Source: an uncultured Mollicutes bacterium
Lineage (GTDB): Bacteria > Bacillota_I > Bacilli_A > RFN20 > CAG-826
DNA length: 64,000 bases
Reading direction: 5' to 3'
Assembly (NCBI GenBank): GCA_900540395.1
Contig: UQFQ01000002.1
Location: 78,918 to 142,917, forward strand
Translations under genes and position numbers: made by a program
Notes under the pieces: model-generated
Told to the model about the DNA's origin: nothing
The model's input: only the letters and a program-made list of their open reading frames with translations
The model's database searches: none
Part shown: positions 1 to 25,270 of the stretch, one piece after another
Layout: each line of letters begins with the position of its first letter
How positions within the stretch are numbered: the stretch's first letter is position 1

Positions 1-1
1 G

Positions 2-1535: not shown

Positions 1536-3101
1536 ATGAAGAAAAAGTTTTTATTGGTAAGTGGAGTATTACTTTGTGCGAGTATGCTTGTTACTTCTTG
1601 TGGAGGTGGAGATGAACCAGGTCCAAATCCTGATCCAAATCCAAATCCTGGTCCAGCTGAGGACATTAATTTAATCGATTCAAGAGAAGATCTTTTTACT
1701 GCTGTTAGTGGTGCTTTAGATGAAAGTGGAAATTTTGTTGCTGATGGAAAAGAAGAAGATTTCCCATCTTTATATGAAGCAGCTAACTATGTTTTTGATG
1801 ACTGTGATAATGGCAGTTATGTCAAATTAAAAGGCGATACTGAAAACAATATTTTATATCAAAAGAGAAGTGGACAAGCTGGTATTGATGGAGCCATTAA
1901 AGATCAATGGTTCTATTATAGAGATGGCAGCACACTTGATGGATATTCAGAATATTTAACTGGTGATACTGATTTCTTCCATGGCGAAAAAGTTACTCGT
2001 TTAATGGCTAGTAGCGCCAATTTAAAATACACATATCAACCTTATGCTTTAATTGCTAGAGAAGGTCATGCTGAAACAACAGCAGCTTGGAATATTCTTC
2101 CACTTATGGATACATCAATTAGATATAATCCAAAGGCTTTCGTTGGTATGAGAAATGAAGTTGTTTCTATTCAATTAAGTGATGCTAGAATTAGACCTTC
2201 ATATAATGAAACTCAAAAAGCAGTACCTACAATTACTCTTTCTACCACCGATTCATTCTTCTGGTCTAACCAAGGTATTTGGATGGATACAGATACTGGA
2301 AATTGGTATTTTGTCGAAGGTGAAACTCAATCAGATGTCAAATCTTTAACCTATGATTCAATGGAAGGAAACCCTGTTATTTTAACTTCAACATGGGATG
2401 AAGAAAAACAAGAATGGACACCAGATGGTGACATTAAGATGTCTCTTGAATATGTTCAAGATCCTGAGATGGAAGTTTGGCTTTTTGATTTTTCAATTGA
2501 AGTTACAGTCGACGGAGAAACAAAAACTTACGAAAACGTTTATGAAAACATCAACGCTACCGGTAGAGGCACCCCTAGATTAAATATTTCTTTAGATATG
2601 GTTGCTGCTACTGATGATTATGACGAAACAACCTTTGCTCCTGATTTTATGTCTGGCGCTTATTTTAAAGGTATTAATGTGACTGAAGCAAAAGGAACAG
2701 TACCTGAAGGATTAACCGATGAAGAATATCAAGGTGATGCTGATATGTGTGGTGTACCAGGAGAAACATATAGTTTCCTTGCAAAAGATATGGGAGAAGA
2801 TAATCCATCTGATGTTGAAATCATTTTAGATCACTACGATGCTATTACTTATCATGAAGATATTACAGATAGCGATGTCTTTGATATTTCTTATGAACAA
2901 AGAGCTAGTGATAAAGCTAGAACTGACGAAGTTGCTGAAGTTGAAAAATTAATTGCTCAAATTCCTGAAGATGCAACAAGTAGTGATGCAAGCGTTATTA
3001 AAGCAAGTGCAAAATATGAACCACTTGAAACAACACAACAAAGATTAATTAGATATTTTGACGGATATACAGCATTAGAAGACGCTTTAAATAGAGGTTA
3101 A
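1536..3101 (+). CDS. Lipoprotein of unrecognised family (paralogue A)
   Basis: RBS 'agagga' upstream. Signal peptide with lipobox 'LVTS-C22', then 'GGGDEPGPNPDPNPNPGP' linker. No motif I recognise in the remaining ~480 aa. Weak similarity to the next ORF ('VSIQLSDARIRPSYNE' vs 'ATVRMSEMRYRPASDG'). Confidence 0.75.
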   Translation: MKKKFLLVSGVLLCASMLVTSCGGGDEPGPNPDPNPNPGPAEDINLIDSREDLFTAVSGALDESGNFVADGKEEDFPSLYEAANYVFDDCDNGSYVKLKGDTENNILYQKRSGQAGIDGAIKDQWFYYRDGSTLDGYSEYLTGDTDFFHGEKVTRLMASSANLKYTYQPYALIAREGHAETTAAWNILPLMDTSIRYNPKAFVGMRNEVVSIQLSDARIRPSYNETQKAVPTITLSTTDSFFWSNQGIWMDTDTGNWYFVEGETQSDVKSLTYDSMEGNPVILTSTWDEEKQEWTPDGDIKMSLEYVQDPEMEVWLFDFSIEVTVDGETKTYENVYENINATGRGTPRLNISLDMVAATDDYDETTFAPDFMSGAYFKGINVTEAKGTVPEGLTDEEYQGDADMCGVPGETYSFLAKDMGEDNPSDVEIILDHYDAITYHEDITDSDVFDISYEQRASDKARTDEVAEVEKLIAQIPEDATSSDASVIKASAKYEPLETTQQRLIRYFDGYTALEDALNRG

Positions 3102-3106
3102 TATCA

Positions 3107-4522
3107 ATGAAACACAAAAGATTTTTATCAATATTATCTCTATCTTTCCTTGCAGCTTGCTCTTTAGCAAGCTGTGGAGGTGGCGATGAACCAGGACCTG
3201 GACCAGGCCCTGATCCAGATCCAACCCCAACTGAACCAACAGTTGAAAATCCTTTAGTAGTTGATGAAATTACAGCTGATAGTGAAGGCATAAAACTTGT
3301 TGCTCCTTTTACCATTTATACAGAAGATGGTGGAACTCCAGAAGAACTTGAATACAATACTGAAACTTTTGATTCTAATGTATTCGAGAATATGTATGAA
3401 GCAATTAGAGTTGCTGGAGCAAATTCGACTAACGCAAATAAATTACAAGTTCAAGATGCTAATCACACACAAATTTTCATTCGTCAAAAAGCCAGTAACT
3501 GGTTCGTTTTTGATGGACATGATTATGTAGGAACTGATTCTCAAACAACTTGTAAAGAATATATTGATTCTCATCCAGATGCTTATGGAATTTATGGACA
3601 AGGTAGCGGCTATGCCTATCTTGGAAGAGAAGATTATGTTGATGAAATGGAATTAAGTGAATCTCAACTTGAACTTAATGCCGGTGCTTATAACTATATG
3701 TTCTCTAAAAATGGGGTAGGAGCTGGAGAGAGTGGTCAAAACCTCAATGGTTTCTCTTATGTTACGGCAACCGTTAGAATGAGCGAAATGAGATATCGTC
3801 CTGCTAGTGATGGTGATGGATGGAACGCTTATATTTTCATTAACTTAAGAGCTGGTATTATTTCTGACCTTGGCTTGATTGGTAATTTGATGAGTGACAA
3901 TACAGTTCAATGGAGACTTGTTAGAAACTGTACATCTACTTCACACGGAACTGCCGGTTTCTTGACTTTCCCAGATAAAGGAATTGTCAATCAATCAACA
4001 AAATATGATGCAGAAACCGGAGAATATTACGGATTTGATGATCTATATTTTGAAGCTTGTGGCTTAAGTAATGGTTGGCTTTTAAACATTACTAATTTAA
4101 GAACAGGACAAACTTATTCACTTGATGAAAGACATTATCAAAGCGATGGAGTTACTCCTCTTGTTGAAAATCCAGATCCAATTTATTATCAAGCATTAAT
4201 TGCTTCTAGCTATTGTCCAGTTGTAGGAAATGTCTGGAACTGGGATTGTGGCGCATCAACTACAAATGTCTTATGGGAAAATATCACTATGCAAAGATAT
4301 GTTGATGATAATATTGAAACATATCGTAATGCAGATGATTCTTTAAAATATAAATTTACCCCTGATAGTGATTATTTAAGAGATGGTTATTCACAAGGTG
4401 CATTTGCTGCTTCTCATGAATTTGGTGTTTATGAAGAAGATGGTGTTTATGCAAGTGGTGCAACATATAAAAAAGGAGATACATACTTATCTCAAAGTGT
4501 AAGTTATACTAATCCTTGGTAA
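3107..4522 (+). CDS. Lipoprotein of unrecognised family (paralogue B)
   Basis: Starts 5 nt after the previous stop. Lipobox 'LAS-C23' then 'GGGDEPGPGPGPDPDPTPTEP'. The nucleotide stretch tgtggaggtgg[a/c]gatgaaccagg is nearly identical to that in 1536..3101. The rest has no recognisable family. Confidence 0.75.
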   Translation: MKHKRFLSILSLSFLAACSLASCGGGDEPGPGPGPDPDPTPTEPTVENPLVVDEITADSEGIKLVAPFTIYTEDGGTPEELEYNTETFDSNVFENMYEAIRVAGANSTNANKLQVQDANHTQIFIRQKASNWFVFDGHDYVGTDSQTTCKEYIDSHPDAYGIYGQGSGYAYLGREDYVDEMELSESQLELNAGAYNYMFSKNGVGAGESGQNLNGFSYVTATVRMSEMRYRPASDGDGWNAYIFINLRAGIISDLGLIGNLMSDNTVQWRLVRNCTSTSHGTAGFLTFPDKGIVNQSTKYDAETGEYYGFDDLYFEACGLSNGWLLNITNLRTGQTYSLDERHYQSDGVTPLVENPDPIYYQALIASSYCPVVGNVWNWDCGASTTNVLWENITMQRYVDDNIETYRNADDSLKYKFTPDSDYLRDGYSQGAFAASHEFGVYEEDGVYASGATYKKGDTYLSQSVSYTNPW

Positions 4523-4539
4523 TAAAGGAGGCCAAATAA

Positions 4540-6210
4540 ATGATGGAAAAAAGATTTTTCTTTGCATTGTTTGCCATAACAATGCTCACAGGTGGGAGTT
4601 TACTTTCTTGCGGAGAAGCAATTGATCCAACAGGAGATTGGACAATTGATGTTGACGCAACTAAAGGGGATATTACATTAAATACTTACTTCCCAGCTTT
4701 TGGTCAAAGTAACGACAAGGTACAAAATGGTTTTATCGCAAATGAACTTGAAAAAATGACGGGTTATAAAGTTACTTATAACCAGACAAGCGAATCTAAT
4801 GCAGATAGTCAAGTTCAAGCTATTTTAACTGGAAAAGAGCCAGTTGATGTTTTAAAAATATCGCCTACTTTGTTCAATAACTACGTAACTCAAGGATATT
4901 TTACTGATTTAACAGAAGGTATTGAAAAGTATGGTGATAACATTAATACCGTTGCTGAAATCAGCGATGAAGAGTGGGAAGCCTGCACTTATAATGGTAA
5001 GGTTTATGCCATTCCTGAAGTTGGACATACTTCAATGGTTAACGTTGCTCTTGTTTGGAACTATGACCATTTAAAAGAAGTTGGTATAAACAAGATTCCT
5101 GAAACAATTTCCGAATTTGATACTGCTGTAAGAGCTCTTCAAGCTCATTTTGGTGAAAATAATGCTAATTATCATGCCTTAGGTCTTGCTGGAACAAACG
5201 CTGAATTCAATCCAATTACCGCAGCATTTGATATGCCAAAGAACTGGTTTGAAAACGAAAATGGCGAACTTGAAAATGCTTTATTTAGTGATCGTACCGA
5301 AGCTTATTTAAATTATATGCATGGCATTTATGAAGCAAGTTGTTTAGCTCAAGGTTGGTCAACACAAATGGAATCAAGCATCATCAATAACTTCGTCAAC
5401 CAAAATTGTAGCGTTATGAATGTTTCTTATTGGAACGTTACAAACTTAAGACAATCCTGTGTTGCTTCTTATGACTTCCCAGAAGGCGTTAATACTGACA
5501 CCAAAAAAACAAATCATGTTTATGGAACTTTAGATCATGAATATGGCTATGCAAGTAGTGACGCAATGATTCAATGGCAAGTCTACTTAAAAGGCGATGG
5601 AACTAACGGAACAAACTATCAAGAAGCTGGCAAATCTCGTGATTCTAAAGGTATTGCTTATTATATTGTTGTTCCTGTTGCTAGTGCTAAAAGAGCGGCA
5701 TATTCACTTGATTGGATTAACTCCAAGATGGAAGAAGATGTTTCTCAAATGATGAGTGCTGGAATTGAAGGAACACACTTTGAATATTCAACCGCTGATG
5801 ATAAAGAAGCAGTTAAACTTATTACTGAAGATGGTGAAGAAGAGGAATACGCAAAAATTCTTGATCAATATAGTAATGACATTTCAGGTATGAGCCAATA
5901 TCAAACTGGTGTTAATAAAAAAGTAGCTAGAAAATGGTGGCCACTTGCTGAACAAGGTTTTGATGCTTGGTCTGTTCTTGCTCTTGATGATAGTCGAGTA
6001 ATTTATGATCCGTTTGCTGTTCACCCAGTTTTACCAAATTTTGCTAGAGTTGACTTAACAGCACAAAATTATGTTATTACTCAACTTCAAAATTGCATCA
6101 ATCAAGGTGGCGATACTTTAGCTAATGCTAGAAATACCTATACCTCAAGATATTGGACTGATACCATCAAAAACGAAGTTAATGATTGGTATAAAAGTTC
6201 TAAAAACTAA
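4540..6210 (+). CDS. ABC transporter extracellular solute-binding lipoprotein (large LplA/YtcQ-like sugar SBP)
   Basis: Strong RBS 'aggagg' 8 nt upstream. Lipobox 'LLS-C'. The ~550 aa size and position directly upstream of LplB/LplC-type permeases fit this family. Confidence 0.8.
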   Translation: MMEKRFFFALFAITMLTGGSLLSCGEAIDPTGDWTIDVDATKGDITLNTYFPAFGQSNDKVQNGFIANELEKMTGYKVTYNQTSESNADSQVQAILTGKEPVDVLKISPTLFNNYVTQGYFTDLTEGIEKYGDNINTVAEISDEEWEACTYNGKVYAIPEVGHTSMVNVALVWNYDHLKEVGINKIPETISEFDTAVRALQAHFGENNANYHALGLAGTNAEFNPITAAFDMPKNWFENENGELENALFSDRTEAYLNYMHGIYEASCLAQGWSTQMESSIINNFVNQNCSVMNVSYWNVTNLRQSCVASYDFPEGVNTDTKKTNHVYGTLDHEYGYASSDAMIQWQVYLKGDGTNGTNYQEAGKSRDSKGIAYYIVVPVASAKRAAYSLDWINSKMEEDVSQMMSAGIEGTHFEYSTADDKEAVKLITEDGEEEEYAKILDQYSNDISGMSQYQTGVNKKVARKWWPLAEQGFDAWSVLALDDSRVIYDPFAVHPVLPNFARVDLTAQNYVITQLQNCINQGGDTLANARNTYTSRYWTDTIKNEVNDWYKSSKN

Positions 6211-6284
6211 TTAATTGAGTTAATTAAAAACAATTAAAATCTCTACTTAAAAGCAGAAAAGAAATAAAGAAAAGACGTTTGATT

Positions 6285-7313
6285 ATGGAAAGTTTTGTTA
6301 TTGGAAATAAGAAAAGAAAAAAACTAAATAGTAGTTCTTTAAACTACTTTCATCGTGTTGGAGTAAAGATAAAAAAGTATGCTTCAATCTTCTGGTTTAT
6401 TTTGCCAGCCATGATTTTAGCCTTTCTTTTTGGTTATGTTCCTTTAATCTTTATTCTTGCTGCTTTTAAGTCTGATTTTATTTTAGCTATCAACTCGCCT
6501 CTAGTTGAACTTTTTAGAAATAACTGGAGTTTTGTGCAGTTTACGAAATTATTTGGGGATAATAGTGAACAATTTTTATTAGCGTTATCCAATACATTAA
6601 TCATTAATGTTATTAAAATTTGTCTTGTTTTCCCTTTCTCAATTTTACTTGCAATTATGCTAAGTGAAGTAAAGTCAACATTTGCAAGTAAACTTATTTT
6701 AATTATTTTGTGTCTTCCAAACTTCTTATCATGGCCAACAGTTATTGGTATTTGGAACAACTTATTTAGAGATCAAAATGGTGTTATTAATAATCTTTTG
6801 ATGTCGATGGGGTTAATTAAAGAGCCAATCTTCTGGTTTGGCGATAATATTGGAGGAATTGCGGGATTCAACTTGTTCAAGTTCTTTGCAATTTTAATGG
6901 ATGCTTGGAAAGGAAGTGGATGGAATTCCATCATGATTTATACAGCTATTATGAGTATTGATAAATCTTACTATGAAGCTAGTGAAATCGATGGATGTAA
7001 CAAAGTTAAACAAGTCTGGTATTTAACTCTTCCTTCAATCTTCCCAATTATTGCGCTCATGTTTATCATGAATATAACTTATATTTTATCGAGTGGATTT
7101 GAACAAATTAATTTATTGGCACAGATTTCTGATCCAAGTTTAAAAGAAAGAATGAAAACACTTGATGTTTATCTTTATGAAGTGGCCCTTGGTGCAGGAG
7201 CGGATATGTCTTTTGCAACGGCTTTAGGTATCTTTAATTCATCAATTTCATTAATCTTAATGCTTGCTGGAAATCAAATAGCAAAGAAGTTCTTACATAG
7301 AGGTTTATGGTAA
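6285..7313 (+). CDS. Sugar ABC transporter permease (LplB-type)
   Basis: Six hydrophobic segments. EAA loop 'YEASEIDGCNKVKQVWYLTLPSI'. I prefer the ATG at 6285 over the TTG at 6279. Confidence 0.85.
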   Translation: MESFVIGNKKRKKLNSSSLNYFHRVGVKIKKYASIFWFILPAMILAFLFGYVPLIFILAAFKSDFILAINSPLVELFRNNWSFVQFTKLFGDNSEQFLLALSNTLIINVIKICLVFPFSILLAIMLSEVKSTFASKLILIILCLPNFLSWPTVIGIWNNLFRDQNGVINNLLMSMGLIKEPIFWFGDNIGGIAGFNLFKFFAILMDAWKGSGWNSIMIYTAIMSIDKSYYEASEIDGCNKVKQVWYLTLPSIFPIIALMFIMNITYILSSGFEQINLLAQISDPSLKERMKTLDVYLYEVALGAGADMSFATALGIFNSSISLILMLAGNQIAKKFLHRGLW

Positions 7314-7314
7314 T

Positions 7315-8223
7315 ATGAAAAGCCCATTTATTAGTGTTCATAAAAAAAGACTTAAAAAGATCATTAAAAAACCAACTAGTGATCGTGTTTTAAGTGGAAT
7401 TAATATTGCTTTACTTATATTTTTCTGTCTTATTGTTATAATTCCTCTTTTAAACTTATTAGCTTTTGCTTTTTCAACTGGAACTAGAAATAGCGAAGTT
7501 ACTTTTTTACCAGCTGGCTTTACATTTGATATGTTTGCTTATGTCATGAATGATTTTGCTTTCTGGAGAAGTTTAGGTAATAGTGTAATTATTACCTTTG
7601 CTGTAACAATTTTGTCCAATTTGTTTATGGCAATGGCGGCTTACCCACTCTCTAAACCAGATTTTCCATTTAAAAAAGGAATTCTTGTTTTCTTCATTAT
7701 TACCATGTTATTTAGCGCTGGTATTGTTCCTTCAGTTTTACTTTTAAGAGGTCTTGGTTTATATGGAACAATTTGGGCAGTTATCTTAATTTCAATTAAT
7801 AACGTCTTCAATATGCTTTTATATAAATCTTTCTTTGAAGGTTTACCAAAAGAAACAATCGAAGCAGCCGAAGTTGATGGAACAACAAACTTCCAAATGT
7901 TTATTAAAATTGTTCTTCCAATGTCTTTACCTGTCTTTGCTAGTTGCTGTTTCTTCTCAATTGTTGGAACATGGAACTCATATAGTGGAGCTTTAATGTT
8001 TATTGGAACAACAAGTGATAAAGAAGCTTATTGGTCACTTTCTCTATACATTTATAATCTTTTACAAACAGATCCATCAAACGATCCAACTAGTTTCTTA
8101 AATATGAATTTAACTAATGTTCAAAGTGCATCAATTGTTATTTCAGTTATACCAATTTTAATAATCTATCCATTTGTTATTCGTTACATTAAAAGTGGCA
8201 TTACTTTGGGGAGTGAAAAATAA
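7315..8223 (+). CDS. Sugar ABC transporter permease (LplC-type)
   Basis: EAA loop 'IEAAEVDGTTNFQMFIKIVLPMSLP'. Starts 1 nt after the preceding stop. Confidence 0.85.
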   Translation: MKSPFISVHKKRLKKIIKKPTSDRVLSGINIALLIFFCLIVIIPLLNLLAFAFSTGTRNSEVTFLPAGFTFDMFAYVMNDFAFWRSLGNSVIITFAVTILSNLFMAMAAYPLSKPDFPFKKGILVFFIITMLFSAGIVPSVLLLRGLGLYGTIWAVILISINNVFNMLLYKSFFEGLPKETIEAAEVDGTTNFQMFIKIVLPMSLPVFASCCFFSIVGTWNSYSGALMFIGTTSDKEAYWSLSLYIYNLLQTDPSNDPTSFLNMNLTNVQSASIVISVIPILIIYPFVIRYIKSGITLGSEK

Positions 8224-8226
8224 AAT

Positions 8227-9354
8227 ATGTTTACGCAAGAAGAAATTAATAAAGCTTATAAATATGTTAAAGAAGATGATGATAACTTCTTTAATGATTT
8301 TGAAATGGAGTATCATGACCCATATAATGAAAACGAATTTAAGTTTTATGGAAGTGGCGTTATTGAACATAAAACTTTAGGAAGATTTACTGAAGAAGAA
8401 ATTAATAAAGTAAAACTAGTTTCTAAAGATGTGCCTTGGTTAGCTACTCAAAGTGCTGGTATTCAAATTCATTTTAAAACTGATTCTAGATTAATTACTG
8501 TTCGTGCCTTTGAAAATGGAGTTCATGATATGAAAAACATGAACTTTATGGCTCAATGCGGATTTGATTTGTATTACAAAGAAAATGGGCAATATATTTA
8601 CCATAACTCAACTTTTGGAAACTATATTGATGCTAAAAAATTCGTTGCAAATCTAGGGGTTTTTAGAGAAAAAAAGGAAAGAGAAATTGTAATTAATTTA
8701 CCTCTTTATATAGGGCTAGTAACTCTTGATATTGGACTTGAAAAAGGTTCAATAATTAAACCAAATTGTGACTTAAAGTCAGGAAGAATAGTTTGCTATG
8801 GAACAAGCATTCTTCAAGGAGGATGTGTCTCGCGTCCTGGACTTTGTATAACAAATGTATTATCACGTTATTTTGAAAGAGAAGTTTTAAATTATGGTTT
8901 TAGTGGAGCTGGACTTTTAGAAGAAGAAATTGGTGAAGTTATTGCTAGTCGAGACGATATTAAACTATTAATAATTGATGCTGAGGCTAATGCTGGTTGC
9001 GATAAACGGATGGTCAATAATTTTGAAAAATTTATAAATAAGTTTTATGAAAGATATCCTAATCTTCCAGTTATCGTCATGAATAAAACTAAAATGGCTA
9101 TTGATTCATTTTTACCACGTAACAAAGGAATGAAAATCTTTAATGATCGCTTTTTAAAAGCAATGGTTAATAAATATAAAAGGAAAGGGAAAGAAATCTA
9201 TTTCGTAGATAATTACCATATCTTTGATAAACAAGATATTGATAGTAGTGAATTTACTGTTGATGGTGTTCATCCTAATGATATGGGAATGCATTTATTG
9301 ACTAATAGCTATATAAAAGCGATTAAAAAGGTTAAATCTTTAGATTTAAAATAG
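8227..9354 (+). CDS. SGNH/GDSL-type esterase with N-terminal GxDLY domain
   Basis: 'CGFDLYY' (GxDLY motif). Block I 'CYGTSILQGG'. Block V 'DGVHPND'. No signal peptide, so cytoplasmic. Confidence 0.7.
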   Translation: MFTQEEINKAYKYVKEDDDNFFNDFEMEYHDPYNENEFKFYGSGVIEHKTLGRFTEEEINKVKLVSKDVPWLATQSAGIQIHFKTDSRLITVRAFENGVHDMKNMNFMAQCGFDLYYKENGQYIYHNSTFGNYIDAKKFVANLGVFREKKEREIVINLPLYIGLVTLDIGLEKGSIIKPNCDLKSGRIVCYGTSILQGGCVSRPGLCITNVLSRYFEREVLNYGFSGAGLLEEEIGEVIASRDDIKLLIIDAEANAGCDKRMVNNFEKFINKFYERYPNLPVIVMNKTKMAIDSFLPRNKGMKIFNDRFLKAMVNKYKRKGKEIYFVDNYHIFDKQDIDSSEFTVDGVHPNDMGMHLLTNSYIKAIKKVKSLDLK

Positions 9355-9365
9355 GGGTGATATTT

Positions 9366-10877: not shown

Positions 10878-10879
10878 AA

Positions 10880-11719: not shown

Positions 11720-11720
11720 T

Positions 11721-17750: not shown

Positions 17751-17805
17751 TAAATATTCATATTTACTTATTCTTATTTAAGTAAACATTGTCAAAAATT
17801 ATGAA

Positions 17806-17834
17806 TTGACTTGTTCTATACTTATAATTTTAAT
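17806..17834 (+). promoter_or_regulatory. Candidate internal sigma-70 promoter (TTGACT-N17-TTTAAT) for the ATPase/GH36 genes
   Basis: TTGACT at 17806-17811 and TTTAAT at 17829-17834. It lies in the only ~95 nt gap of the operon and is followed by RBS 'gagg' (17835-17838) and the ATG at 17847. Confidence 0.4.
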
Positions 17835-17846
17835 GAGGTACAAGAG

Positions 17847-19709
17847 ATGTCTAATATTATAAACAAATTCAAAAATCATTTAGCTGACAATAAAGAAAGA
17901 AAATTAAAAGAACGTGAAGAATACGAAAAACGTGTTATTAATTATAACCGTGTTGTTGCAGTAGAACTGGCAAATCGTAGAAAGCCTAAAAAAGCACCTG
18001 AAGGTTCTTTTATATCGCTTCAAAATATCAACAAGATTTATGATAATCTTGTTCAAGCAGTTTATGATTTTAATTTAGACATCAAGAAAAATGAATTTGT
18101 TGTTTTCGTTGGGCCTTCTGGTTGTGGTAAATCAACAACTTTAAGAATGATTGCTGGCCTTGAAGAAATTACTGCTGGTAATTTATTTATTGATGGAGTT
18201 TACGCTAATTCTTTAGCGCCAAAAGATAGAAATATAGCTATGGTTTTCCAAAGCTATGCTTTATATCCACATATGTCTGTTTTTGATAACATGGCTTTTT
18301 CCATGAAAATTAGACCAACTGAATGCCCAATTTTAGATGAAAACGGAAATCCTAAACTTGGAATAGATGATGAAAAACTTCAAAAACTAGAAAAATCAAA
18401 AGAATTTAAGAATAACGATTTAAATAAATTAATTGAAAAAGAATCTAGTTTTGCAAATATTTTAGAAGAAACGAAGGCTAAATTTGGTGTTGAGGAAAGT
18501 AAAGACGCCAAAGAAAACATTTATAATGCAAGAGATAATCTTTTAAGTGTTCAATATGAAATTAAGAAACTAGAAAATGAAATTAATGAACTCGATGAAC
18601 AAATTGAAAAAGTTAAAAATACTCAAATCGTTTTAACTGAATACCGTAAGTTAAACAAAGATGAAATAAAAAAGAATGTTTTAGAAGCAGCCAAGATTCT
18701 TCAAATTGATGAATATTTAGATAGAAAACCAAAAGCATTAAGTGGTGGTCAAAGACAAAGAGTTGCTTTAGGACGTGCAATTTGTAAGAAAGCTAAACTT
18801 TTCTTAATGGATGAGCCTTTATCTAATCTTGATGCAAAACTTAGAGTCTCAATGCGTAGTGAAATTATAAGACTTCATAAAGCAATAGGAGCAACAACAA
18901 TTTATGTTACTCATGATCAAACCGAAGCTATGACTATGGCCGATCGTATTGTTATTATGGAAAAAGGTGTTGTTCAACAAATTGGTTCACCTCGTGAAAT
19001 CTATAATCATCCAGCTAATGTCTTTGTAGCTACCTTTATTGGCTCACCATCTATGAACATTTTAAAAGTCCAAATTAAAGATGGAAGAATTAAATTTGAT
19101 GAGAATAATTATCTTGAATTGCCTAAAGAAATTATTGATAAATTAGTCGCTAAACTTGAGGAAAGAGTCGCAAAAATCAATTATTTCATTAAAAATGGCG
19201 TTCAAGAAGAATATGAAAAAGAACTTAATGTTAAACGTGAAACTTTAAGAATTAAACTTGACACTAAAGGCTATAAATTTAGTCATGATAAAAATGGAAA
19301 TGTATTAGATCCAATTGAAAGTTTAACTCTTAATGAAGAAGAAAAAGCCGTTTGTGAAAGCTTCTATAAAGAAAAATTAAAACGCCTTTTAACTTTTAAA
19401 GATAGTTACGAAAAGATGTTAAAGGAAGGCGTCTATGAAGTTATCTTTGGTGTCAGACCAGAAGATGTTTACTTTAAAGACAATATTACCGAAAGATTTG
19501 TTAAAGAAAGTAACGAACTTACCCTTACAATTTCAATTCCTGAATTGTTAGGACATGAATATTTCTTACATGCTGAACTTGGTAAAAAAGATTTTGTCTT
19601 TAAAACTAGCGCTAATTATGATGTTAAAGAAAATTCTAATGTCAAAGTTATTGTTGATTTAAATAAAATTCATCTTTTCGATACAATTGATAAGAATATT
19701 TTGGTTTAA
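17847..19709 (+). CDS. MsmK/MalK-type sugar ABC ATP-binding protein with N-terminal extension and ~110 aa insertion
   Basis: Walker A 'GPSGCGKST', Q-loop 'MVFQSYALYPHMSV', signature 'LSGGQRQRVALGRA', Walker B 'LFLMDEPLSNLD', H-loop 'YVTHDQ'. A Lys/Glu-rich segment sits between 'FSMKIR' and 'KLNKDEIKKNVLEAAKIL'. ATG at 17847 chosen because of the RBS. Confidence 0.85.
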   Translation: MSNIINKFKNHLADNKERKLKEREEYEKRVINYNRVVAVELANRRKPKKAPEGSFISLQNINKIYDNLVQAVYDFNLDIKKNEFVVFVGPSGCGKSTTLRMIAGLEEITAGNLFIDGVYANSLAPKDRNIAMVFQSYALYPHMSVFDNMAFSMKIRPTECPILDENGNPKLGIDDEKLQKLEKSKEFKNNDLNKLIEKESSFANILEETKAKFGVEESKDAKENIYNARDNLLSVQYEIKKLENEINELDEQIEKVKNTQIVLTEYRKLNKDEIKKNVLEAAKILQIDEYLDRKPKALSGGQRQRVALGRAICKKAKLFLMDEPLSNLDAKLRVSMRSEIIRLHKAIGATTIYVTHDQTEAMTMADRIVIMEKGVVQQIGSPREIYNHPANVFVATFIGSPSMNILKVQIKDGRIKFDENNYLELPKEIIDKLVAKLEERVAKINYFIKNGVQEEYEKELNVKRETLRIKLDTKGYKFSHDKNGNVLDPIESLTLNEEEKAVCESFYKEKLKRLLTFKDSYEKMLKEGVYEVIFGVRPEDVYFKDNITERFVKESNELTLTISIPELLGHEYFLHAELGKKDFVFKTSANYDVKENSNVKVIVDLNKIHLFDTIDKNILV

Positions 19710-19718
19710 TTTTGATAT

Positions 19719-21917
19719 ATGGAAATTAGATTTGATGAAAAAAGTAAAACTTTCTTTCTAAAAGCAGAAAAATTTACTTATATCTTTTATGTTAATCATT
19801 TGAATATTTTAACTAAGTTATATTTTGGTGAACCTATTGAAATTGGCGAAATTAGTAATAACTTATTAAACTTTATTAATTGTTTAAATGCAGATTCTTA
19901 TAATTACTTTGATTTAAAAACTCAAAAAGAAGTAATTAATCAAGACCCTTATTTTTCAGGTTTAACTAGTGAAATTGAAGCGCCTTCTTTTTTAACTTAT
20001 GATAAAAGAGGAGCTTTAGTTGAAATAAGGCATAGTGATAATTCATCATTAACTGATTTTCGCTATGTTAGCCATAAGATTTATACAGGCAAAGAAGATT
20101 TAGATGACTTACCTCATTTTAATGATAAAGATGCTTTAACTTTAGAATTACTACTTAAAGATATTAAAGATGAAATCTATTTAAAAATGTTTTATACCCT
20201 TTATGAAGGAGAAAACATTTTAGTTAGACACAATGAAATTATTAATAAAAGTAAAAATGAAGTAAAAATCTTAAAGGCTAATTCTTTAGCTTTAGATTTG
20301 CCAACTTTAGATTATGATCTTTTATCGGTTTATGGAACTTATGCGACTGATCGAATTCTTGAAAGAGAAGAACTTAAACATAATATAACTTCAATTACAG
20401 AAAATGCCGGTGGAAAAGGTTTTTACCATAATCCAATGTGTATGCTTTTAAAAAAAGATACCACTTATGATAATGGTGAAACAATTGGAATTGGTTTAGT
20501 TTATTCAGGTAATTTCAAGTTTGATTTTATTGGTAACCCACTTAATAAATTAAGATGTTTAATTGGAATTAACGATGAAAATTTTGAATATCCATTAAAA
20601 ACTGGTGAGACTTTTATTACGCCGGAAGCCTTTATTTCTTATTCGATTAATGGCATTAATTCAATGAGTCATATTTTCCATAATGCAATTAAAAATCATC
20701 TTTTAAGAAAAGTAGATGGCTTTAATAAAACTATTCTTCTTAACTCTTGGGAAGGATGCATGATGGATTTTAACACTCAAAAAATTATTAAATTCATCGA
20801 TAAAGCTAAAGAGATGGGTGTTAATTTATTTGTTTTAGATGATGGGTGGTTTGCTAAAAGAAATAGCGATGATTCTTCTTTAGGTGATTGGTACGTCAAT
20901 AAAGATAAGATTGATGTTAAAAAAGTTGTAGATTATGCTCACTCAAAAAATATTAAATTTGGTATTTGGATTGAACCAGAAATGATTTCTTTTGATAGCG
21001 AATTATATCGTGCACATCCTGAATATGCTTTATATGATAGAACAGTTAATCCAACTGTCTTACGTCATCAATTTGTTTTAGATATTACCCAAAAAGAAGT
21101 AAGAGATTATATTTTTAATCAGATTAAGACATTATTTGAAGAATATCATTTTGATTATTGTAAATGGGATTTTAATCGTTTGCTTACAGAAGCAGTTAGT
21201 CAAATGGATCCAAGTAAGAACTCATATTTATATCATGCTTTTACATTAGGAAGCTATGATTTGTTAAATCGTTTTATGAAAACCTTTCCAAATGTTTTAC
21301 TTGAAACGTGTGCCGGTGGTGGCGGTAGATTTGATTTAGGAATGCTTTATTATTCTTCTCAAATTTGGGGAAGTGATGAAACAGATGGAGTAGCCCGTAC
21401 TTTGATTCAGTTTGCAACTAATGTTTTTTATCCATTAAAAGTAATTGGATCTCATGTTAGTGCTCGTAAGTTTTTAAGCATTAAAGAAAAAGCTGCGGTC
21501 GCTTTATTTGGAACATTTGGTTATGAACTTGATCCTACTAAATTAAGTGATGAAGAATTAAAAGAAGTTAAAATATCAAACGAGTGGTTTGATAAATATG
21601 AAGATTTAATTGATGAAGGGGATTATTATTCATTAATTTCACCTTATGGTAATAATTTTGTTGCTTGGGAAGTTGTTAAAAAAGATCAAAGTGAGGCTTT
21701 AATCTTTTTCATGAATTATCGTCAAGTTAACCGGGAATCACGCTTTTTAAAAGTCCACGGACTTAAAAAAGACGCTTATTATCAAAATGATTTAACTAAT
21801 GATGTATTTAAAGGGGATATTTATTCTAAGATTGGGTTAAACTTATCTAGTGGAAGACAATCGTTTACTCCAAGCTTAATCCATTTAAAAGAAGTTAGTG
21901 ATGAAAAAGAAAGATAA
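19719..21917 (+). CDS. Glycoside hydrolase family 36 (alpha-galactosidase / alpha-N-acetylgalactosaminidase type)
   Basis: 'LDDGWF', 'CKWDFNR', 'ETCAGGGGRFDLG', 'QIWGSDETD'. Classic GH36 blocks. 732 aa. Confidence 0.85.
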   Translation: MEIRFDEKSKTFFLKAEKFTYIFYVNHLNILTKLYFGEPIEIGEISNNLLNFINCLNADSYNYFDLKTQKEVINQDPYFSGLTSEIEAPSFLTYDKRGALVEIRHSDNSSLTDFRYVSHKIYTGKEDLDDLPHFNDKDALTLELLLKDIKDEIYLKMFYTLYEGENILVRHNEIINKSKNEVKILKANSLALDLPTLDYDLLSVYGTYATDRILEREELKHNITSITENAGGKGFYHNPMCMLLKKDTTYDNGETIGIGLVYSGNFKFDFIGNPLNKLRCLIGINDENFEYPLKTGETFITPEAFISYSINGINSMSHIFHNAIKNHLLRKVDGFNKTILLNSWEGCMMDFNTQKIIKFIDKAKEMGVNLFVLDDGWFAKRNSDDSSLGDWYVNKDKIDVKKVVDYAHSKNIKFGIWIEPEMISFDSELYRAHPEYALYDRTVNPTVLRHQFVLDITQKEVRDYIFNQIKTLFEEYHFDYCKWDFNRLLTEAVSQMDPSKNSYLYHAFTLGSYDLLNRFMKTFPNVLLETCAGGGGRFDLGMLYYSSQIWGSDETDGVARTLIQFATNVFYPLKVIGSHVSARKFLSIKEKAAVALFGTFGYELDPTKLSDEELKEVKISNEWFDKYEDLIDEGDYYSLISPYGNNFVAWEVVKKDQSEALIFFMNYRQVNRESRFLKVHGLKKDAYYQNDLTNDVFKGDIYSKIGLNLSSGRQSFTPSLIHLKEVSDEKER

Positions 21918-23178
21918 AAATAAAGAATATACCTATTTAATAGCTAAAAGATCGAGAAGCTTTATGGCAATGGCTCTTGATTCAATAATTGTTTGTATTT
22001 TAACAATTGTTCTTTTTTATGCAGGAGCAAATCCGATTTTAAATGCAAATGGTCAAAATGATTTAATTGCTTTAAAGGATGAAGAATCTAGTAAATTGAC
22101 GTCAATTTTAAAAGATTCACACCTAGCGGCTTATAATGATGAAACAGGAGTACTTAGTACACCTGAAAGCTTATATAATGTTTTCGTTTATCAAAACATT
22201 AAGTATTGTTATGAGAATTACCCAGAAATTTATAAGAATGATCTCGATGAATATGGATATGAAACTAAAAAAGAATTTTTCAAAGATGTTAATGAAATTA
22301 GTTTTGACAACGATTATTTAGGTTATTTTTACACAAACTATATTATTGATAAAAAAGATCTAAATAATGAAAACATCTTAGATATCAATAAAGATAATGC
22401 TAATGAATATTTCGTTAATGAAGTGCTAGACCTTAATAAAGAAGAAGGCAGTAAATTTTTTGAAATTAATAACAACGATTATTCTTGCTATCCAAGATTA
22501 AATAAAGATGTTTGTCGTTATTTATTTCAATATCATTTAATGAATGTATCTTATTCAACATTAAGAGATGTTGACAATGCTTTTTACAATTACTTTTTAG
22601 ATCGTTATGTTGAAGCTGGTAATTATTTATTAGAGTATGAAGAATATGCTAACGCCTTAAATAATTACAATTCTTATTATGATCAAATTCAGTCTAATTT
22701 ATTAACTGCAGTGATATTAACTTATACTGTTATAATTTTAATTTATTATTTTATTATTCCTGTATTTTTACCAAATAAATCAAGCTTTGCAGGGTTTTTG
22801 CTTAAAATTCACCGTTTAACCGATGATAAAAAGAGTAAACTTTATATCTATTTTTTAACAGGAATTAATTCTTACTTACATAATTTCTTCACTTTATTAG
22901 TGTCGACTTTGTTGACAGCTGGAGTAAATACTTTAAATTTTCATTTTGCTGAGTTAGGAGTGTTTACTTTTAACATTTTACACATCATTCTTTTATCTTT
23001 AATAATTAACGTTATTTCGCTTATTGTCTTTTGTGTTAGAAAAGATGGGAAAGGCTTATTCTCATTGGTTACTAAAACAAATTATTATTACTTAGTTGAT
23101 GGCGTAAAAGAAGAAAATAACGAAAAAGAAAAAGAAGATTCAACGAGCGAACCTTCTTTTGACAGCTTACTTAATTGA
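21901..23178 (+). CDS. Polytopic membrane protein, possibly RDD-family
   Basis: N-terminal 'KRSRSFMAMALDSIIVCILTIVLF' resembles an RDD domain start. Long Asn/Tyr/Asp-rich middle region, then 3-4 C-terminal TM helices. Overlaps the GH36 stop by ~17 nt. Confidence 0.55.
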   Translation: MKKKDKNKEYTYLIAKRSRSFMAMALDSIIVCILTIVLFYAGANPILNANGQNDLIALKDEESSKLTSILKDSHLAAYNDETGVLSTPESLYNVFVYQNIKYCYENYPEIYKNDLDEYGYETKKEFFKDVNEISFDNDYLGYFYTNYIIDKKDLNNENILDINKDNANEYFVNEVLDLNKEEGSKFFEINNNDYSCYPRLNKDVCRYLFQYHLMNVSYSTLRDVDNAFYNYFLDRYVEAGNYLLEYEEYANALNNYNSYYDQIQSNLLTAVILTYTVIILIYYFIIPVFLPNKSSFAGFLLKIHRLTDDKKSKLYIYFLTGINSYLHNFFTLLVSTLLTAGVNTLNFHFAELGVFTFNILHIILLSLIINVISLIVFCVRKDGKGLFSLVTKTNYYYLVDGVKEENNEKEKEDSTSEPSFDSLLN

Positions 23179-23988
23179 GTAAATATAAAGTTTTCGATAT
23201 TGCTTAGGTGTTAAGCCAGTTGCGCCTTTAAATTTTCTAATAAAGTTATTGGCATTATTAAAACCACATTCAACAGCGATTTCCTTAATACTTTTACTGG
23301 ATACTTTAAGGAGTTTTTTAGAAGCATTGACCTTAACATTTAATAAATATTCTTTGTAAGTCATCCCAACATTTTTCTTAAAGAAATCACAGAAATAATT
23401 CTTTTGATAGCCACAGAAATTACTTAACTCTTGTAGTGATGGGTTTTTATTGTAATTAGCTTGAATGTAACGCAAAACATCAACACTAGAACTTTTTCCA
23501 TTTTTTGCACATTTAACAAAACTAGAACCAATAACTATTAATAGCAAAGCATTTAATAAGTGAGATAAGATAAGCTCTTTATTTGATCTATGACCAAAGA
23601 AGATTTCTTGAATAACTTCAGCAGTTGATAAAACTTGCTTTAGTTTATTTGGTGTAAGATCAATAACAATGTCATTATCATAATCAAAGAAATTAGTAAG
23701 AATTGATTCGTCTAAAATTGATGAAGTAAATGCAATATTGATAATTTTTAGTGGCTTAGTGGCAATAATTTCATGATAATCAGTTGGTCTAAATAAGAAC
23801 ATTCTAGATTTAGAAATGTCATATTTAACTTGATTGATTATTTCGTAGCCTTCTCCTTCGATTGGAATTTCAAGTTCATAAAAATCATGGAAGTGCAAAG
23901 GGTAATATTTATCAACTTCACTTAGAACAAAATAAATTTCATTTCCGAATAAGAAACTAGTATCTAACAAATTTGGTGCATTTTTCAT
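23167..23988 (-). CDS. AraC family transcriptional regulator (cupin sensor + HTH)
   Basis: N-terminal cupin-like 'YYPLHFHDFYELEIPIEGEG'. C-terminal AraC HTH 'LQELSNFCGYQKNYFCDFFKKNVGMTYKEYL..ECGFNNANNFIRKFK'. Its 3' end overlaps the convergent membrane-protein gene by 12 nt. Confidence 0.85.
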   Translation of the reverse strand: MKNAPNLLDTSFLFGNEIYFVLSEVDKYYPLHFHDFYELEIPIEGEGYEIINQVKYDISKSRMFLFRPTDYHEIIATKPLKIINIAFTSSILDESILTNFFDYDNDIVIDLTPNKLKQVLSTAEVIQEIFFGHRSNKELILSHLLNALLLIVIGSSFVKCAKNGKSSSVDVLRYIQANYNKNPSLQELSNFCGYQKNYFCDFFKKNVGMTYKEYLLNVKVNASKKLLKVSSKSIKEIAVECGFNNANNFIRKFKGATGLTPKQYRKLYIYSIK

Positions 23989-24232
23989 AATTCTTTAATA
24001 ATCACTTTTTAATAATTTTTCTTTAATAAACTGCAATATATACTCAAATATTAAGATTGTAAAGCAATATTTACAATTATTATTATAATGAATAAATCTT
24101 AATTTTTGATAATTTTTATCGAGATTAATAAATATGCCCTAAATATTGCATATTTCTTCTTAATATTGTGATAAACATAATTCTGTCGTATGTAATATAA
24201 TTTTTACGACTAGAGAAAAGAGGAAGAAAAAG

Positions 24233-25270
24233 ATGAACGAAACAATTATGCATAAAGAGATTTTCTTAATACCTGAATCGTTAAAATTGACTAAATCTTA
24301 TAATGAAAAAATAGTTAAAGAACTTAAGAAAGTCTTTCTTGAAAAAGATATTAAAAATGTAATGGTCGTCGCAAGAGGAAGTAGCGATAACGTTGGAGTT
24401 TATCTTAAATATTTGTTTGAAATATATTTACATATTCCAGTATCTTTTGCAGCCTGTAGTGTAGTCACAAAATATAATTCTTATCTTAATTTTGACAAAA
24501 CTTTAGTAATCGGCATTTCTCAATCTGGAGCCGGAGAAGACATTAGATCTTATCTTGAGATGGCTAGAAAAAATGGTGCTTTAACTCTTGCTATTACAAA
24601 TAATTTAGATTCAATCTGTGCTAAAGCTTCAGAATTTAATTTTTATCTTAACTTAACAAAAGAAGAGGCTCTTGCCGCAACAAAAACATTTATCTCTCAA
24701 ATGTATGTTGTTTTAATGCTTGTTAAAGAACTTAGTGATAATGAAAAAGTGGCACTTGCTTTAGATTCTCTTGATGAAAAAGTAAAAGAGATTTTAAGCA
24801 AGGAAGAAGATATAAAAGAGGTCGCAAAAAATTGTACATCCTTCATTGACTGCTATTTACTTAGTAGAGGAATTAATTATGTTTCTTCTTTAGAAGGCGC
24901 TTTAAAAATTCAAGAAACAACTTTTATCAAAGCTAAAGCTTATGCAAGTAGTGATTTCTATCATGGACCAATGGCAATTGTTGATGAGAAACAAAACATG
25001 TTTTTACTTGCTGCTAGGGGTGAAGTAGAAGATGATAATCACGCTATCTATGACAAAATCAAAAGCTTAAAAGCAAATATAATTGCGATTACAAATGATG
25101 AATACTATAAGGATGAAAAGAACTTAATTAAGATTCCAGAATGTGATGAAATCATTTCTCCATTTTTAATAATTATTGCAATTCAACTTCTTGTTTGTAA
25201 TATCTCGATTTTAAAAGGAATAGATGTTGACCATTCAAGAAATTTAAATAAAGTTACAGTAACTAGATGA
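24233..25270 (+). CDS. Tandem SIS-domain sugar-phosphate isomerase/deaminase (AgaS / GlmS-C-terminal-like)
   Basis: SIS motif 'VIGISQSGAGEDI'. A second SIS half contains 'EGALKIQETTFI'. 345 aa. Divergent from the AraC gene. Confidence 0.7.
   Translation: MNETIMHKEIFLIPESLKLTKSYNEKIVKELKKVFLEKDIKNVMVVARGSSDNVGVYLKYLFEIYLHIPVSFAACSVVTKYNSYLNFDKTLVIGISQSGAGEDIRSYLEMARKNGALTLAITNNLDSICAKASEFNFYLNLTKEEALAATKTFISQMYVVLMLVKELSDNEKVALALDSLDEKVKEILSKEEDIKEVAKNCTSFIDCYLLSRGINYVSSLEGALKIQETTFIKAKAYASSDFYHGPMAIVDEKQNMFLLAARGEVEDDNHAIYDKIKSLKANIIAITNDEYYKDEKNLIKIPECDEIISPFLIIIAIQLLVCNISILKGIDVDHSRNLNKVTVTR

Follow-up and report, generated by a model that had tools for sequence, protein, structure and literature searches.

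The 64,000-nucleotide stretch analyzed here (hereafter the window), which is part of contig UQFQ01000002.1 of an uncultured Mollicutes bacterium, opens with an amino-sugar glycan locus that includes a gene for NanE, the N-acetylmannosamine-6-phosphate (ManNAc-6-P) 2-epimerase. Neither a sialic acid lyase nor a sialidase was found for this locus in the window or in 8.4 kb of upstream DNA of a 96%-identical contig. Based on its genomic context, we assign a probability of about 0.5 to the reading that the locus scavenges a phosphodiester-linked, ManNAc-containing glycopolymer of bacterial envelopes, and that its DUF4127 (PF13552) protein releases ManNAc or ManNAc-6-P. On this reading, the polymer is most likely wall teichoic acid (WTA) with its linker of ManNAc beta1,4-linked to N-acetylglucosamine (GlcNAc), or a related one. 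DUF4127 is a candidate ManNAc- or ManNAc-6-P-releasing hydrolase, with a catalytic class suggested by its gene neighborhood.

Four independent kinds of genomic evidence tie DUF4127 to ManNAc-6-P metabolism, namely synteny, gene fusion, partner displacement, and a glycosidase slot in a phosphotransferase system (PTS) operon. For synteny, 81 loci were compared (the window and 80 loci from GTDB species representatives), and a homologue located within 10 kb of DUF4127 was counted as a partner. The nearest entry in the reference set stands at 63%. Counts were obtained by two methods, one scoring the window proteins against the loci and the other using unbiased clustering of all open reading frames (ORFs). 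Co-occurrence of DUF4127 with nanE and ROK kinase genes, which the first-pass annotation of this DNA had singled out for examination, is evident, with NanE found in 42 and ROK in 39 of the 81 loci. Other partners are ABC permeases (45–49 loci), the glycoside hydrolases (GHs) GH31 (34) and GH20 (29–31), GxDLY-SGNH esterases (about 19–26), substrate-binding proteins (SBPs; 24), glycerophosphodiester phosphodiesterases (GDPDs; 16–20), the surface lipoprotein LipoA (18), Gfo/Idh/MocA oxidoreductases (12), and GH36 (5). ORF clustering further identified RpiR regulators (35 loci), NAGPA phosphodiester glycosidases (16), PF12831 FAD-dependent oxidoreductases (16), GH26-like lipoproteins (15), GNAT-like proteins (10), GHL10/DUF4985 proteins (9), and AGE-family epimerases (4). 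When the E. coli proteins were used in tblastn, a NanA homologue was found in one of the 80 other loci (27% identity), and NagA and NagB in three each. The synteny of DUF4127, NanE, and ROK spans several Firmicutes orders and a few other phyla.

The organization of these loci differs among lineages. The order found in the window (GDPD-LipoA-LipoB-SBP-Perm-Perm-SGNH-DUF4127-ROK-GH20-GH31-GFO-NanE-ATPase-GH36) is retained in two genera-level relatives (L002 and L005) at 47–87% protein identity. A super-locus of approximately 30 kb in distant Clostridia (L012 and L013 on CALVUR010000001.1) has the same parts list in a different order, namely NAGPA-SGNH-DUF4127-ROK-GH20-GH31-GNAT-RpiR-LipoA-like-SBP-Perm-Perm-DUF4127-GH31-u201-GDPD-GH26-like-NanE-GH36. 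Several genomes have two DUF4127 paralogues per super-locus (L012/L013; L018 and L023), one located by ROK/GH20 and the other by permeases/GH31. Such pairs suggest that two related substrates are handled, or that there are separate phosphorylated and unphosphorylated routes. The Paenibacillus/Bacillus type has the order RpiR-SBP-Perm-Perm-DUF4127-FADox-GHL10-NanE-ROK-esterase-GH20. Among the Bacillus and Paenibacillus loci, L053, L052, L058, L061, L062, and L072 have DUF4127 followed by the PF12831 FAD-dependent oxidoreductase and GHL10/DUF4985 genes, and then by NanE-ROK. Cultured carriers include many Paenibacillus (including P. alvei), Bacillus, and Thermoanaerobacterium, as well as Clostridium sartagoforme.

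Partner displacement involves the exchange of NanE for an AGE-family epimerase, and of the ABC importer plus ROK for a PTS without a kinase. The first exchange is seen in L018, L023, L007, and L046 and characterizes the rumen Bacilli type, where an epimerase of the AGE type stands in the place of NanE and ROK; its best NCBIfam model is N-acylglucosamine 2-epimerase (320 bits, versus 78 for cellobiose 2-epimerase). The PTS variant was found in three Clostridium species (L045, L055, and L056) in the order NanE-EIIC-HAD-EIIA-EIIB-DUF4127-RpiR, with DUF4127 translationally coupled to EIIB. This PTS is complete and belongs to the lactose/cellobiose family (EIIC, TIGR00410, 340 versus 236 bits; EIIA, PF02255; EIIB, PF02302). 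Transporters of this family import beta-linked disaccharides and phosphorylate C6 of the non-reducing sugar, and a phospho-beta-glycosidase normally follows. The Clostridium operon contains no kinase and no GH1 or GH4, and no GH1/GH4 6-phospho-beta-glycosidase domain was found in the ORFs scanned of the window or of the L055 operon. Because the operon offers no other candidate, DUF4127 holds the place that a 6-phospho-beta-glycosidase has in cel/chb operons, and the neighboring NanE gene implies ManNAc-6-P as the product.

Fusion proteins point in the same direction. Among the best 150 representatives of the DUF4127 family, six are fused to ROK, one to NanE (NanE domain 233 bits), one to SGNH (P0187), and one to GHL10 (P0181). 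The first-pass annotation had offered the possibility that unassigned proteins of the locus supply undescribed steps; for DUF4127, this is strongly supported by the synteny, by the ROK and NanE fusions, and by the replacement of NanE with AGE.

When 1.84 billion cluster representatives were searched with a profile, 1,104 DUF4127 clusters (50% identity) scored below E 1e-30. P0001 is a 96% homologue of the window protein, which has the 73 invariant columns common to 20 diverse members. Among the 120 best matches listed by a word-index search, no relative has a functional name, and no description of DUF4127/PF13552 function was found in the searchable, incomplete literature. The pneumococcal protein SP1680 is not a family member but a small hypothetical protein. 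The AlphaFold2 (AF2) model is confident (pLDDT 93). No PDB relative was found by sequence profile search, and the best Foldseek matches are assorted TIM-barrel enzymes with a TM-score of about 0.2; because these are weak, no TIM barrel is claimed for DUF4127. Comparisons with the neighboring GHL10 and GH26-like families gave hhalign probabilities below 1%, and those with GH1/GH4 gave no sequence match and a fold TM-score no better than about 0.17. One clade has signal peptides (P0240, P0247, P0251, P0252, P0264, P0266, P0273, P0280, and P0292); it lacks the Cys of the DERPCN motif and has DDRPV[SN] or DNRPIS instead. Because such a secreted clade exists, DUF4127 is most simply a cofactor-independent hydrolase, and a phosphorylated substrate cannot be required by every member.

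For the surface enzymes, the Logan contig L085 is informative. It has 96% identity to window positions 1–13101 over 13.1 kb and reaches 8.4 kb further upstream. The upstream genes encode an esterase lipoprotein of the CE2 type, another GDPD that has a signal peptide and is anchored C-terminally, a GNAT-like cytoplasmic protein, a lipoprotein of the NAGPA "phosphodiester glycosidase" type with a DGGGS motif, and a lipoprotein with Flg_new repeats. Given this gene content, the locus is at least 33 kb in size and opens with surface phosphodiesterases, and the window covers its downstream two-thirds. The first-pass annotation had placed the start of the gene string at position 1536, which is incorrect since the GDPD ORF at 1–1447, open at the window start, belongs to the locus. 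The full-length GDPD in L085 has 652 amino acids (aa) with a signal peptide, and the part in the window ends in a hydrophobic segment, LGLIISLSIAIPLLCVFVGVLILVLV, which is a transmembrane anchor. A surface GDPD-family phosphodiesterase as in teichoic-acid degrading systems, with GDPD domain and C-terminal anchor, is therefore encoded in the window itself. This phosphodiesterase context (GDPD and NAGPA) had been overlooked, and it points to teichoic-acid-type polymers rather than to host sialoglycans. In the human enzyme, DGGGS is the motif that recognizes GlcNAc-1-phosphate (PMC13474241). It is retained in all 16 NAGPA neighbors found in the DUF4127 loci (16/16).

For LipoA, no Pfam match was found and the family is small (34 clusters). 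Its AF2 model (pLDDT 90.8) gave Foldseek matches to YncM, glutamic peptidases, GH16, PL7, and lectins, with TM-scores of up to 0.58 on the target. A hidden sialidase was considered for LipoA and ruled out by Foldseek on this model, which is a concanavalin-like jelly-roll and not a beta-propeller. LipoA-homologous segments are found within lipoproteins of 1200–1500 aa in 18 of the 81 loci. LipoB has no match in Pfam or NCBIfam, and its homologues occur in L001, L002, L005, L011, L029, and L050. Signal peptides or lipoboxes are present in the GDPDs, NAGPA, the CE2 esterase, LipoA/LipoB, the GH26-like protein, and u201, whereas SGNH, DUF4127, ROK, GH20, GH31, GH36, the oxidoreductase, NanE, and the GNAT-like protein have no leader. 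From this enzyme set and these location signals, the extracellular target is therefore expected to be a polymer with polyol-phosphate and N-acetylhexosamine (HexNAc)-1-phosphate diesters and acyl esters.

WTA has glycerol phosphate (GroP) repeats that carry D-alanine or alpha-glucose, a linker of ManNAc-beta1,4-GlcNAc, and an attachment to N-acetylmuramic acid through a glycosidic phosphodiester, and the exo-acting enzyme GlpQ stalls at substituted units (PMC7086022). Each of these WTA bond types is matched by a candidate enzyme in the locus. Outside the cell, membrane-anchored GDPDs would cut polyol-phosphate bonds, the NAGPA-type glycosidase would cut HexNAc-1-phosphate bonds, and the CE2 esterase would remove acyl or D-alanyl esters, while LipoA and LipoB may bind or cut the polymer. 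The ABC importer with its large SBP would then take up the fragments, which are predicted to carry alpha-glucose, alpha-galactose, beta-HexNAc, and ManNAc. Inside the cell, the SGNH esterase, GH31 (alpha-glucose), GH36 (alpha-galactose), and GH20 (beta-HexNAc) would strip the substituents. DUF4127 would free ManNAc from a beta-ManNAc glycoside, or ManNAc-6-P once ROK has phosphorylated the disaccharide. ROK and NanE would produce GlcNAc-6-P, and the SIS protein is perhaps a deaminase of the NagB-II type. We infer this substrate, and the roles of DUF4127, ROK, GDPD, NAGPA, LipoA/LipoB, the oxidoreductase, and the SIS protein, from gene context and sequence.

Several points weigh against this reading. 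The assignments of catalysis and substrate come from gene context, among them the putative hydrolase role of DUF4127, which has no recognizable catalytic fold relative. GDPD domains act on lipid head groups too. The NAGPA gene is not in the window, and its presence upstream is deduced from the 96%-identical contig L085. An alpha-galactoside module of its own could be formed by GH36 and the ATPase, given that GH36 is near DUF4127 in only five loci, or these two may also serve other pathways. Some 19 of the 81 loci have no epimerase within 10 kb of DUF4127, and the three PTS-type loci probably represent one evolutionary event because the Clostridium species are closely related. No nagA was found in the window by tblastn. 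Finally, a WTA chain of 30–50 repeats has just one ManNAc residue (PMC7086022), so a ManNAc-rich polymer, such as an SCWP (secondary cell wall polymer) or a capsule, may be the true substrate.

The last point leads to an alternative with the same enzymology, in which the substrate is a ManNAc-rich polymer other than teichoic acid, for example a pyruvylated [ManNAc-GlcNAc]n SCWP or a phosphodiester-containing capsule, and in which walled carriers may recycle their own wall. We regard this as unlikely for the window, although it has some appeal. Many of the cultured carriers (Paenibacillus including P. alvei, Bacillus, and Thermoanaerobacterium) are from groups in which ManNAc-GlcNAc SCWPs are known (PMC11464976). 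In the loci of these carriers, the PF12831 FAD oxidoreductase and GHL10 are found instead of GDPD and NAGPA, the 15 loci with a GH26-like (beta-mannanase-like) lipoprotein are consistent with such a substrate, and WTA offers one ManNAc per chain. However, loci of the window and Clostridia types have two GDPDs and NAGPA, more than the single linkage phosphodiester of an SCWP would call for, and Pfam scans found no GH26-like, GHL10, or FAD oxidoreductase gene in the window. In some lineages, for example those whose loci are of the Paenibacillus/Bacillus type and have no GDPD or NAGPA, ManNAc-rich secondary wall polymers or capsules may nevertheless serve as the main substrate. It is also conceivable, albeit rather improbable, that the locus targets host or dietary glycans, that ROK and NanE salvage free ManNAc obtained by cross-feeding from organisms that degrade sialic acid, and that DUF4127 is unrelated to this process (a deacetylase, isomerase, or chaperone). 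GH20C-type, GH31, and GH36 enzymes are typical of loci for host and plant oligosaccharides, and the window is rich in other glycan-foraging genes (CBM32/F5_F8 proteins, GH13, GH2, and GH43-like). Yet this leaves unexplained the surface GDPD and the DGGGS-positive NAGPA, the DUF4127-ROK and DUF4127-NanE fusions, and the minimal Clostridium operon of PTS, NanE, HAD phosphatase, DUF4127, and RpiR. Moreover, ManNAc occurs in host glycans solely via sialic acid, for which the lyase is missing here.

A chance concatenation of alpha-galactoside (ATPase and GH36), alpha-glucoside (GH31), and HexNAc (GH20/ROK/NanE) modules, with no single substrate, is quite unlikely. GH36 is a raffinose-type alpha-galactosidase, the counts for GH36 (5/81) and the Cys-rich oxidoreductase (12/81) are low, and MsmK-type ATPases often serve several importers. 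On the other hand, the order from GDPD to GH36 is kept at 47–87% protein identity in L002 and L005, the same set is found in another order in the Clostridia L012/L013, and the genes are separated by gaps of 1–88 nt or overlap, with no intergenic terminator. The least probable explanation is a pathway for sialic or other nonulosonic acids, in which DUF4127 would be a non-homologous replacement of NanA that converts the acid to ManNAc and pyruvate, followed by ROK (as NanK) and NanE; we give this little credence. DUF4127-ROK-NanE together with RpiR does mirror the Gram-positive NanA-NanK-NanE-NanR core, NanA is systematically absent from the DUF4127 loci, and the weak Foldseek matches of DUF4127 are TIM-barrel sugar enzymes. 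However, there is no sialidase in the window or among the recurrent neighbor families, the surface enzymes are phosphodiesterases, and no NanT homologue was found. In addition, the PTS whose operon includes the Clostridium DUF4127 is of the lactose/cellobiose family, a class that transports beta-disaccharides and not sialic acid, and a DUF4127 clade with signal peptides exists.

As noted in the first-pass annotation, the 64 kb contain no NanA-type lyase or GH33 sialidase: E. coli NanA gave no tblastn match at E<0.01, and no sialidase/BNR or DHDPS domain was found in the ORFs scanned. The Asp-box motif (S.D.G..W) does not occur in the six frames of the window, and tblastn over the whole window with E. 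coli NanA, NanT, NanQ, NagA, and NagB found no match, whereas NanE matched. A nanA or sialidase gene immediately upstream of base 1 would have changed the interpretation, and none is present in the 8.4 kb upstream in L085, where NanA also had no tblastn match. The proposed analogy to the 2,7-anhydro-N-acetylneuraminic acid cluster of Ruminococcus gnavus was not sustained. The alignment of the Gfo/Idh/MocA oxidoreductase with E. coli NanY, which is the NanOx orthologue (31 bits; 22% identity over 89 aa), is limited to the Rossmann region, NanOx/YjhC is not among its PDB matches (E<1e-3), and this oxidoreductase is a partner in only 12 loci. A NanOx/NanY identity was ruled out by these BLASTP and PDB searches. 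Release of ManNAc by GH20, which had also been suggested, is mechanistically unlikely. GH20 catalysis depends on participation of the 2-acetamido group, for which the substrate must have the 1,2-trans gluco/galacto configuration; beta-ManNAc has the 1,2-cis arrangement. Since GH20 cannot cleave beta-ManNAc, a new enzyme is needed, for which DUF4127 is the candidate. As for the statement that ROK plus NanE define the step from ManNAc to ManNAc-6-P, the NanE part is solid, but the ROK protein scores alike with ManNAc kinases, glucokinases, and beta-glucoside kinase.

Compared to canonical nan clusters (nanATEK of E. coli; clusters with an RpiR-type NanR in Gram-positives), the locus shares NanE (33% identity to that of E. 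coli), an adjacent ROK, an importer, RpiR in related loci, and GlcNAc-6-P as output. It differs in that NanA, sialidase, NanT, and NanQ are missing, DUF4127 takes the position of the ManNAc producer, and surface phosphodiesterases are found in place of sialidases. The R. gnavus cluster includes an intramolecular trans-sialidase, an SBP with permeases, NanOx, NanA/K/E, an esterase, and an AraC regulator, and the E. coli counterparts are NanX/NanY. The likeness is superficial (SBP with two permeases, Gfo/Idh/MocA protein, esterase, NanE, and AraC), as the locus lacks GH33 (including the intramolecular trans-sialidase), NanA, and a NanOx/NanY-like oxidoreductase. It is therefore a member of neither the nan family nor its R. 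gnavus variant, and works like a Gram-positive ABC-type glycan locus joined to the lower half of the nan pathway.

For phospho-beta-glycosides, the Clostridium variant resembles cel/chb operons in having Lac-family EIIA/EIIB/EIIC, one gene in the hydrolase slot, and RpiR, and the ABC variants resemble the BglK beta-glucoside kinase route in pairing DUF4127 with a ROK kinase whose best NCBIfam match is BglK. The window itself has an ABC importer and ROK instead of a Lac-family PTS. A domain of unknown function in a glycosidase slot has a parallel in MupG of S. aureus (formerly DUF871), which Kluj and colleagues reportedly identified in 2018 as a 6-phospho-N-acetylmuramidase in an RpiR-regulated murQ operon. 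Unlike in the cel/chb and MupG systems, DUF4127 is unrelated to GH1, GH4, and GH170 by sequence or fold, and the downstream NanE implies ManNAc-6-P as the product. The window GH20 is a clear homologue of S. pneumoniae GH20C (PDB 5a69, E 4e-126; also 2epk, 7e-122) and S. gordonii GcnA, and includes the GH20C C-terminal domain. The genomic context differs, as the pneumococcal GH20C is located in an N-glycan processing locus.

For teichoic acids, the known system is WTA degradation by B. subtilis under phosphate starvation through GlpQ (an exo-acting GDPD) and PhoD (endo-acting) (PMC7086022; Myers et al., 2016, PMC5207077). The locus shares with this system the secreted or surface GDPD-family enzymes and the same proposed substrate class; only the GDPD step is common, and the action on WTA is a prediction here. 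The GlpQ/PhoD system stops at GroP release, whereas the GDPDs here are within an import and catabolic operon together with NAGPA, esterases, glycosidases, and NanE. For the GlpQ/PhoD system, we know of no report that the sugar substituents of WTA or its ManNAc-GlcNAc linker are imported or catabolized. We also know of no description, beyond GlpQ and PhoD, of the breakdown or recycling of teichoic acids and the universal ManNAc-GlcNAc linker. The searchable, incomplete literature contains no description of a beta-N-acetylmannosaminidase or any enzyme acting on beta-ManNAc glycosides, and for teichoic-acid or ManNAc catabolic loci it holds only the GlpQ/PhoD work and general reviews.

The gene string itself is as previously noted, with every ORF present at its position and nearly all domain calls borne out by Pfam and NCBIfam profiles (Table 1).

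Table 1. Predicted genes of the locus in the window.
Feature	Position	Strand	Evidence
GDPD, surface glycerophosphodiester phosphodiesterase, 3' part	1–1447	+	Pfam GDPD 63.5 bits; no stop codon from base 2
LipoA, surface lipoprotein; predicted glycan-binding or endo-acting module	1536–3101	+	Lipobox VTSC; concanavalin-like beta-jelly-roll fold
LipoB, second surface lipoprotein	3107–4522	+	Lipobox LASC
SBP, large (556 aa) lipoprotein of ABC importer	4540–6210	+	SBP_bac_1 41.6 bits; lipobox LLSC
Two ABC permeases	6279–7313, 7315–8223	+	BPD_transp_1
GxDLY-SGNH esterase, cytoplasmic	8227–9354	+	Lipase_GDSL_3 119.9 bits; GxDLY 78.9 bits
DUF4127 protein, cytoplasmic	9366–10877	+	PF13552 484.9 bits (cutoff 27); model positions 2–488 of 489
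ROK sugar kinase	10880–11719	+	ROK 95 bits
GH20, intracellular exo-beta-N-acetylhexosaminidase, GH20C/GcnA type	11721–13556	+	Glyco_H_20C_C 167 bits
GH31, intracellular, alpha-glucosidase type	13568–15769	+	Glyco_hydro_31 326 bits; MalA-like 429 bits (cutoff 800)
Gfo/Idh/MocA oxidoreductase, Cys-rich	15781–17079	+	Pfam; PDB matches generic only
NanE, ManNAc-6-P 2-epimerase	17076–17750	+	PF04131 188 bits; NF002231 267 bits (cutoff 189)
ABC ATPase, MalK/UgpC type, Lys/Glu-rich insertion of ~110 aa	17811–19709	+	UgpC model 427 bits; MalK 367 bits
GH36 alpha-galactosidase, intracellular, raffinose type	19719–21917	+	Melibiase 367 bits; AgaSK 2yfn E 4.5e-147; AgaA/AgaB
Multi-pass membrane protein, weakly RDD-like	21898–23178	+	RDD 20.7 bits, below cutoff 24.1
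AraC-family regulator	23167–23988	-	HTH_AraC, HTH_18, AraC_binding; convergent with operon, divergent from SIS gene
Two-SIS-domain protein	24233–25270	+	SIS 103 bits; GlmS 223, NagB-II 200, AgaS 29 bits, all below cutoffs

The window is AT-rich (26–36% GC). Co-directional ORFs fill it from base 1 to 23178, followed by the convergent AraC gene, which overlaps the last gene of the operon by 12 nt, and by the SIS gene. The close packing was confirmed, with successive gaps of 88, 5, 17, 68, 1, 3, 11, 2, 1, 11, 11, -4, 60, 9, and -20 nt, as was the GTGA overlap between the oxidoreductase and NanE genes (17076–17079). Promoter and terminator scans gave results at chance level, with no intergenic terminator inside the string, and an Rfam scan of the window found no match. 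Some details of the first-pass annotation were revised. The start of DUF4127 is the ATG at 9366 (503 aa, with a Shine-Dalgarno-like GGGGTGA upstream) and not the GTG at 9357. The SIS protein, labeled AgaS-like, bears more resemblance to NagB-II and to the isomerase domain of GlmS than to AgaS, and judging from sequence may be a glucosamine-6-phosphate deaminase of the NagB-II type. The RDD-like label falls below the Pfam threshold, and no homologue of this membrane protein was found across the 81 loci. GH31 and GH36 were confirmed as families and refined to the alpha-glucosidase and alpha-galactosidase types, respectively. The GC content is 35–36% in the surface-protein genes LipoA, LipoB, and SBP (window 2000–6000), compared to 26–30% in the cytoplasmic-enzyme genes downstream; Gly/Pro/Asp-rich composition instead of foreign origin may explain this.

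For the cytoplasmic enzymes, the sole PDB relative of the GxDLY-SGNH esterase, which adjoins DUF4127 in the loci counted above, is the uncharacterized 4lhs, and this putative enzyme would remove O-acyl groups from the imported fragment. The ROK kinase has BglK as its best NCBIfam match (93 bits), followed by NanK models (71–85, versus cutoffs of 283–450) and glucokinase (85), all far below the cutoffs. Its best PDB matches are nearly equal (ManNAc kinase 5nck, 75 bits; glucokinase 3vov, 74 bits), and E. coli NanK gave no tblastn match in the window. The ROK specificity is thus not defined by sequence, and the candidate substrates are ManNAc, GlcNAc, or a disaccharide. The best bacterial PDB match of GH31 is the alpha-glucosidase 3n04. 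The Gfo/Idh/MocA protein contains 16 Cys, of which eight (77, 127, 189, 190, 230, 233, 239, and 287) are conserved. They include C189-C190, C230-x2-C233-x5-C239, and C287, are common to its four homologues in other DUF4127 loci, and suggest a metal or Fe-S site, which would be unusual in this family. GH36 homologues are found in L002, L005, L013, L049, and L050. The ATPase has Walker A at residue 101 and LSGGQ at 310. Lys/Glu-rich, coiled-coil-like insertions between these motifs occur in both ATPases of the window, with spacings of ~209 residues (17811–19709) and ~346 residues (36603–38606) compared to the normal ~100. Such insertions are known from Mollicutes-like lineages.

The next gene downstream of the locus, at a distance of 640 nt, encodes a bacterial serpin (PF00079, 132 bits; 25912–27213), a type of protein that is uncommon in bacteria. 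Behind it lies a small module of a TrmB-family sugar regulator, a major facilitator superfamily sugar transporter, and a second SGNH esterase (27655–30738), which may be another uptake unit for an acylated sugar. A second ABC system (33328–40377) consists of a lipoprotein that matches no Pfam family, a double permease fused into one protein of 608 aa, and an ATPase of 667 aa, and is preceded by a two-component system (30829–33164) and followed by a phosphoglucomutase/phosphomannomutase. The region 46318–63847 is dense in glycan-foraging genes. Surface proteins encoded there carry Listeria-Bacteroides repeats and domains of the F5/8 type C (CBM32-like) and GLUG kinds. The region also has genes for a GH13 that includes CBM32-like domains, for a CBM4_9 protein, and for two LacI regulators, and further on for a GH43-like lipoprotein, another SBP with two permeases, and a GH2 (best PDB match beta-glucuronidase 7xyr).

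Taken together, these findings correct an easy mis-annotation, in which loci with NanE and ROK are taken for sialic acid clusters. A bolder proposal is that DUF4127 founds a new glycoside hydrolase family of beta-N-acetylmannosaminidases, some clades of which act on the 6-phosphorylated sugar, that cleave the ManNAc-beta1,4-GlcNAc linker of WTA/SCWP, with the locus as the first complete teichoic-acid utilization system. We put this forward tentatively, as it is more doubtful than the scavenging of an envelope glycopolymer as such. If true, gut Bacilli and Clostridia would have a defined nutrient niche in Gram-positive wall polymers. The hypothesis offered here concerns both a missing enzyme and a nutrient route in gut and rumen communities that draws on bacterial necromass and cell-wall polymers.

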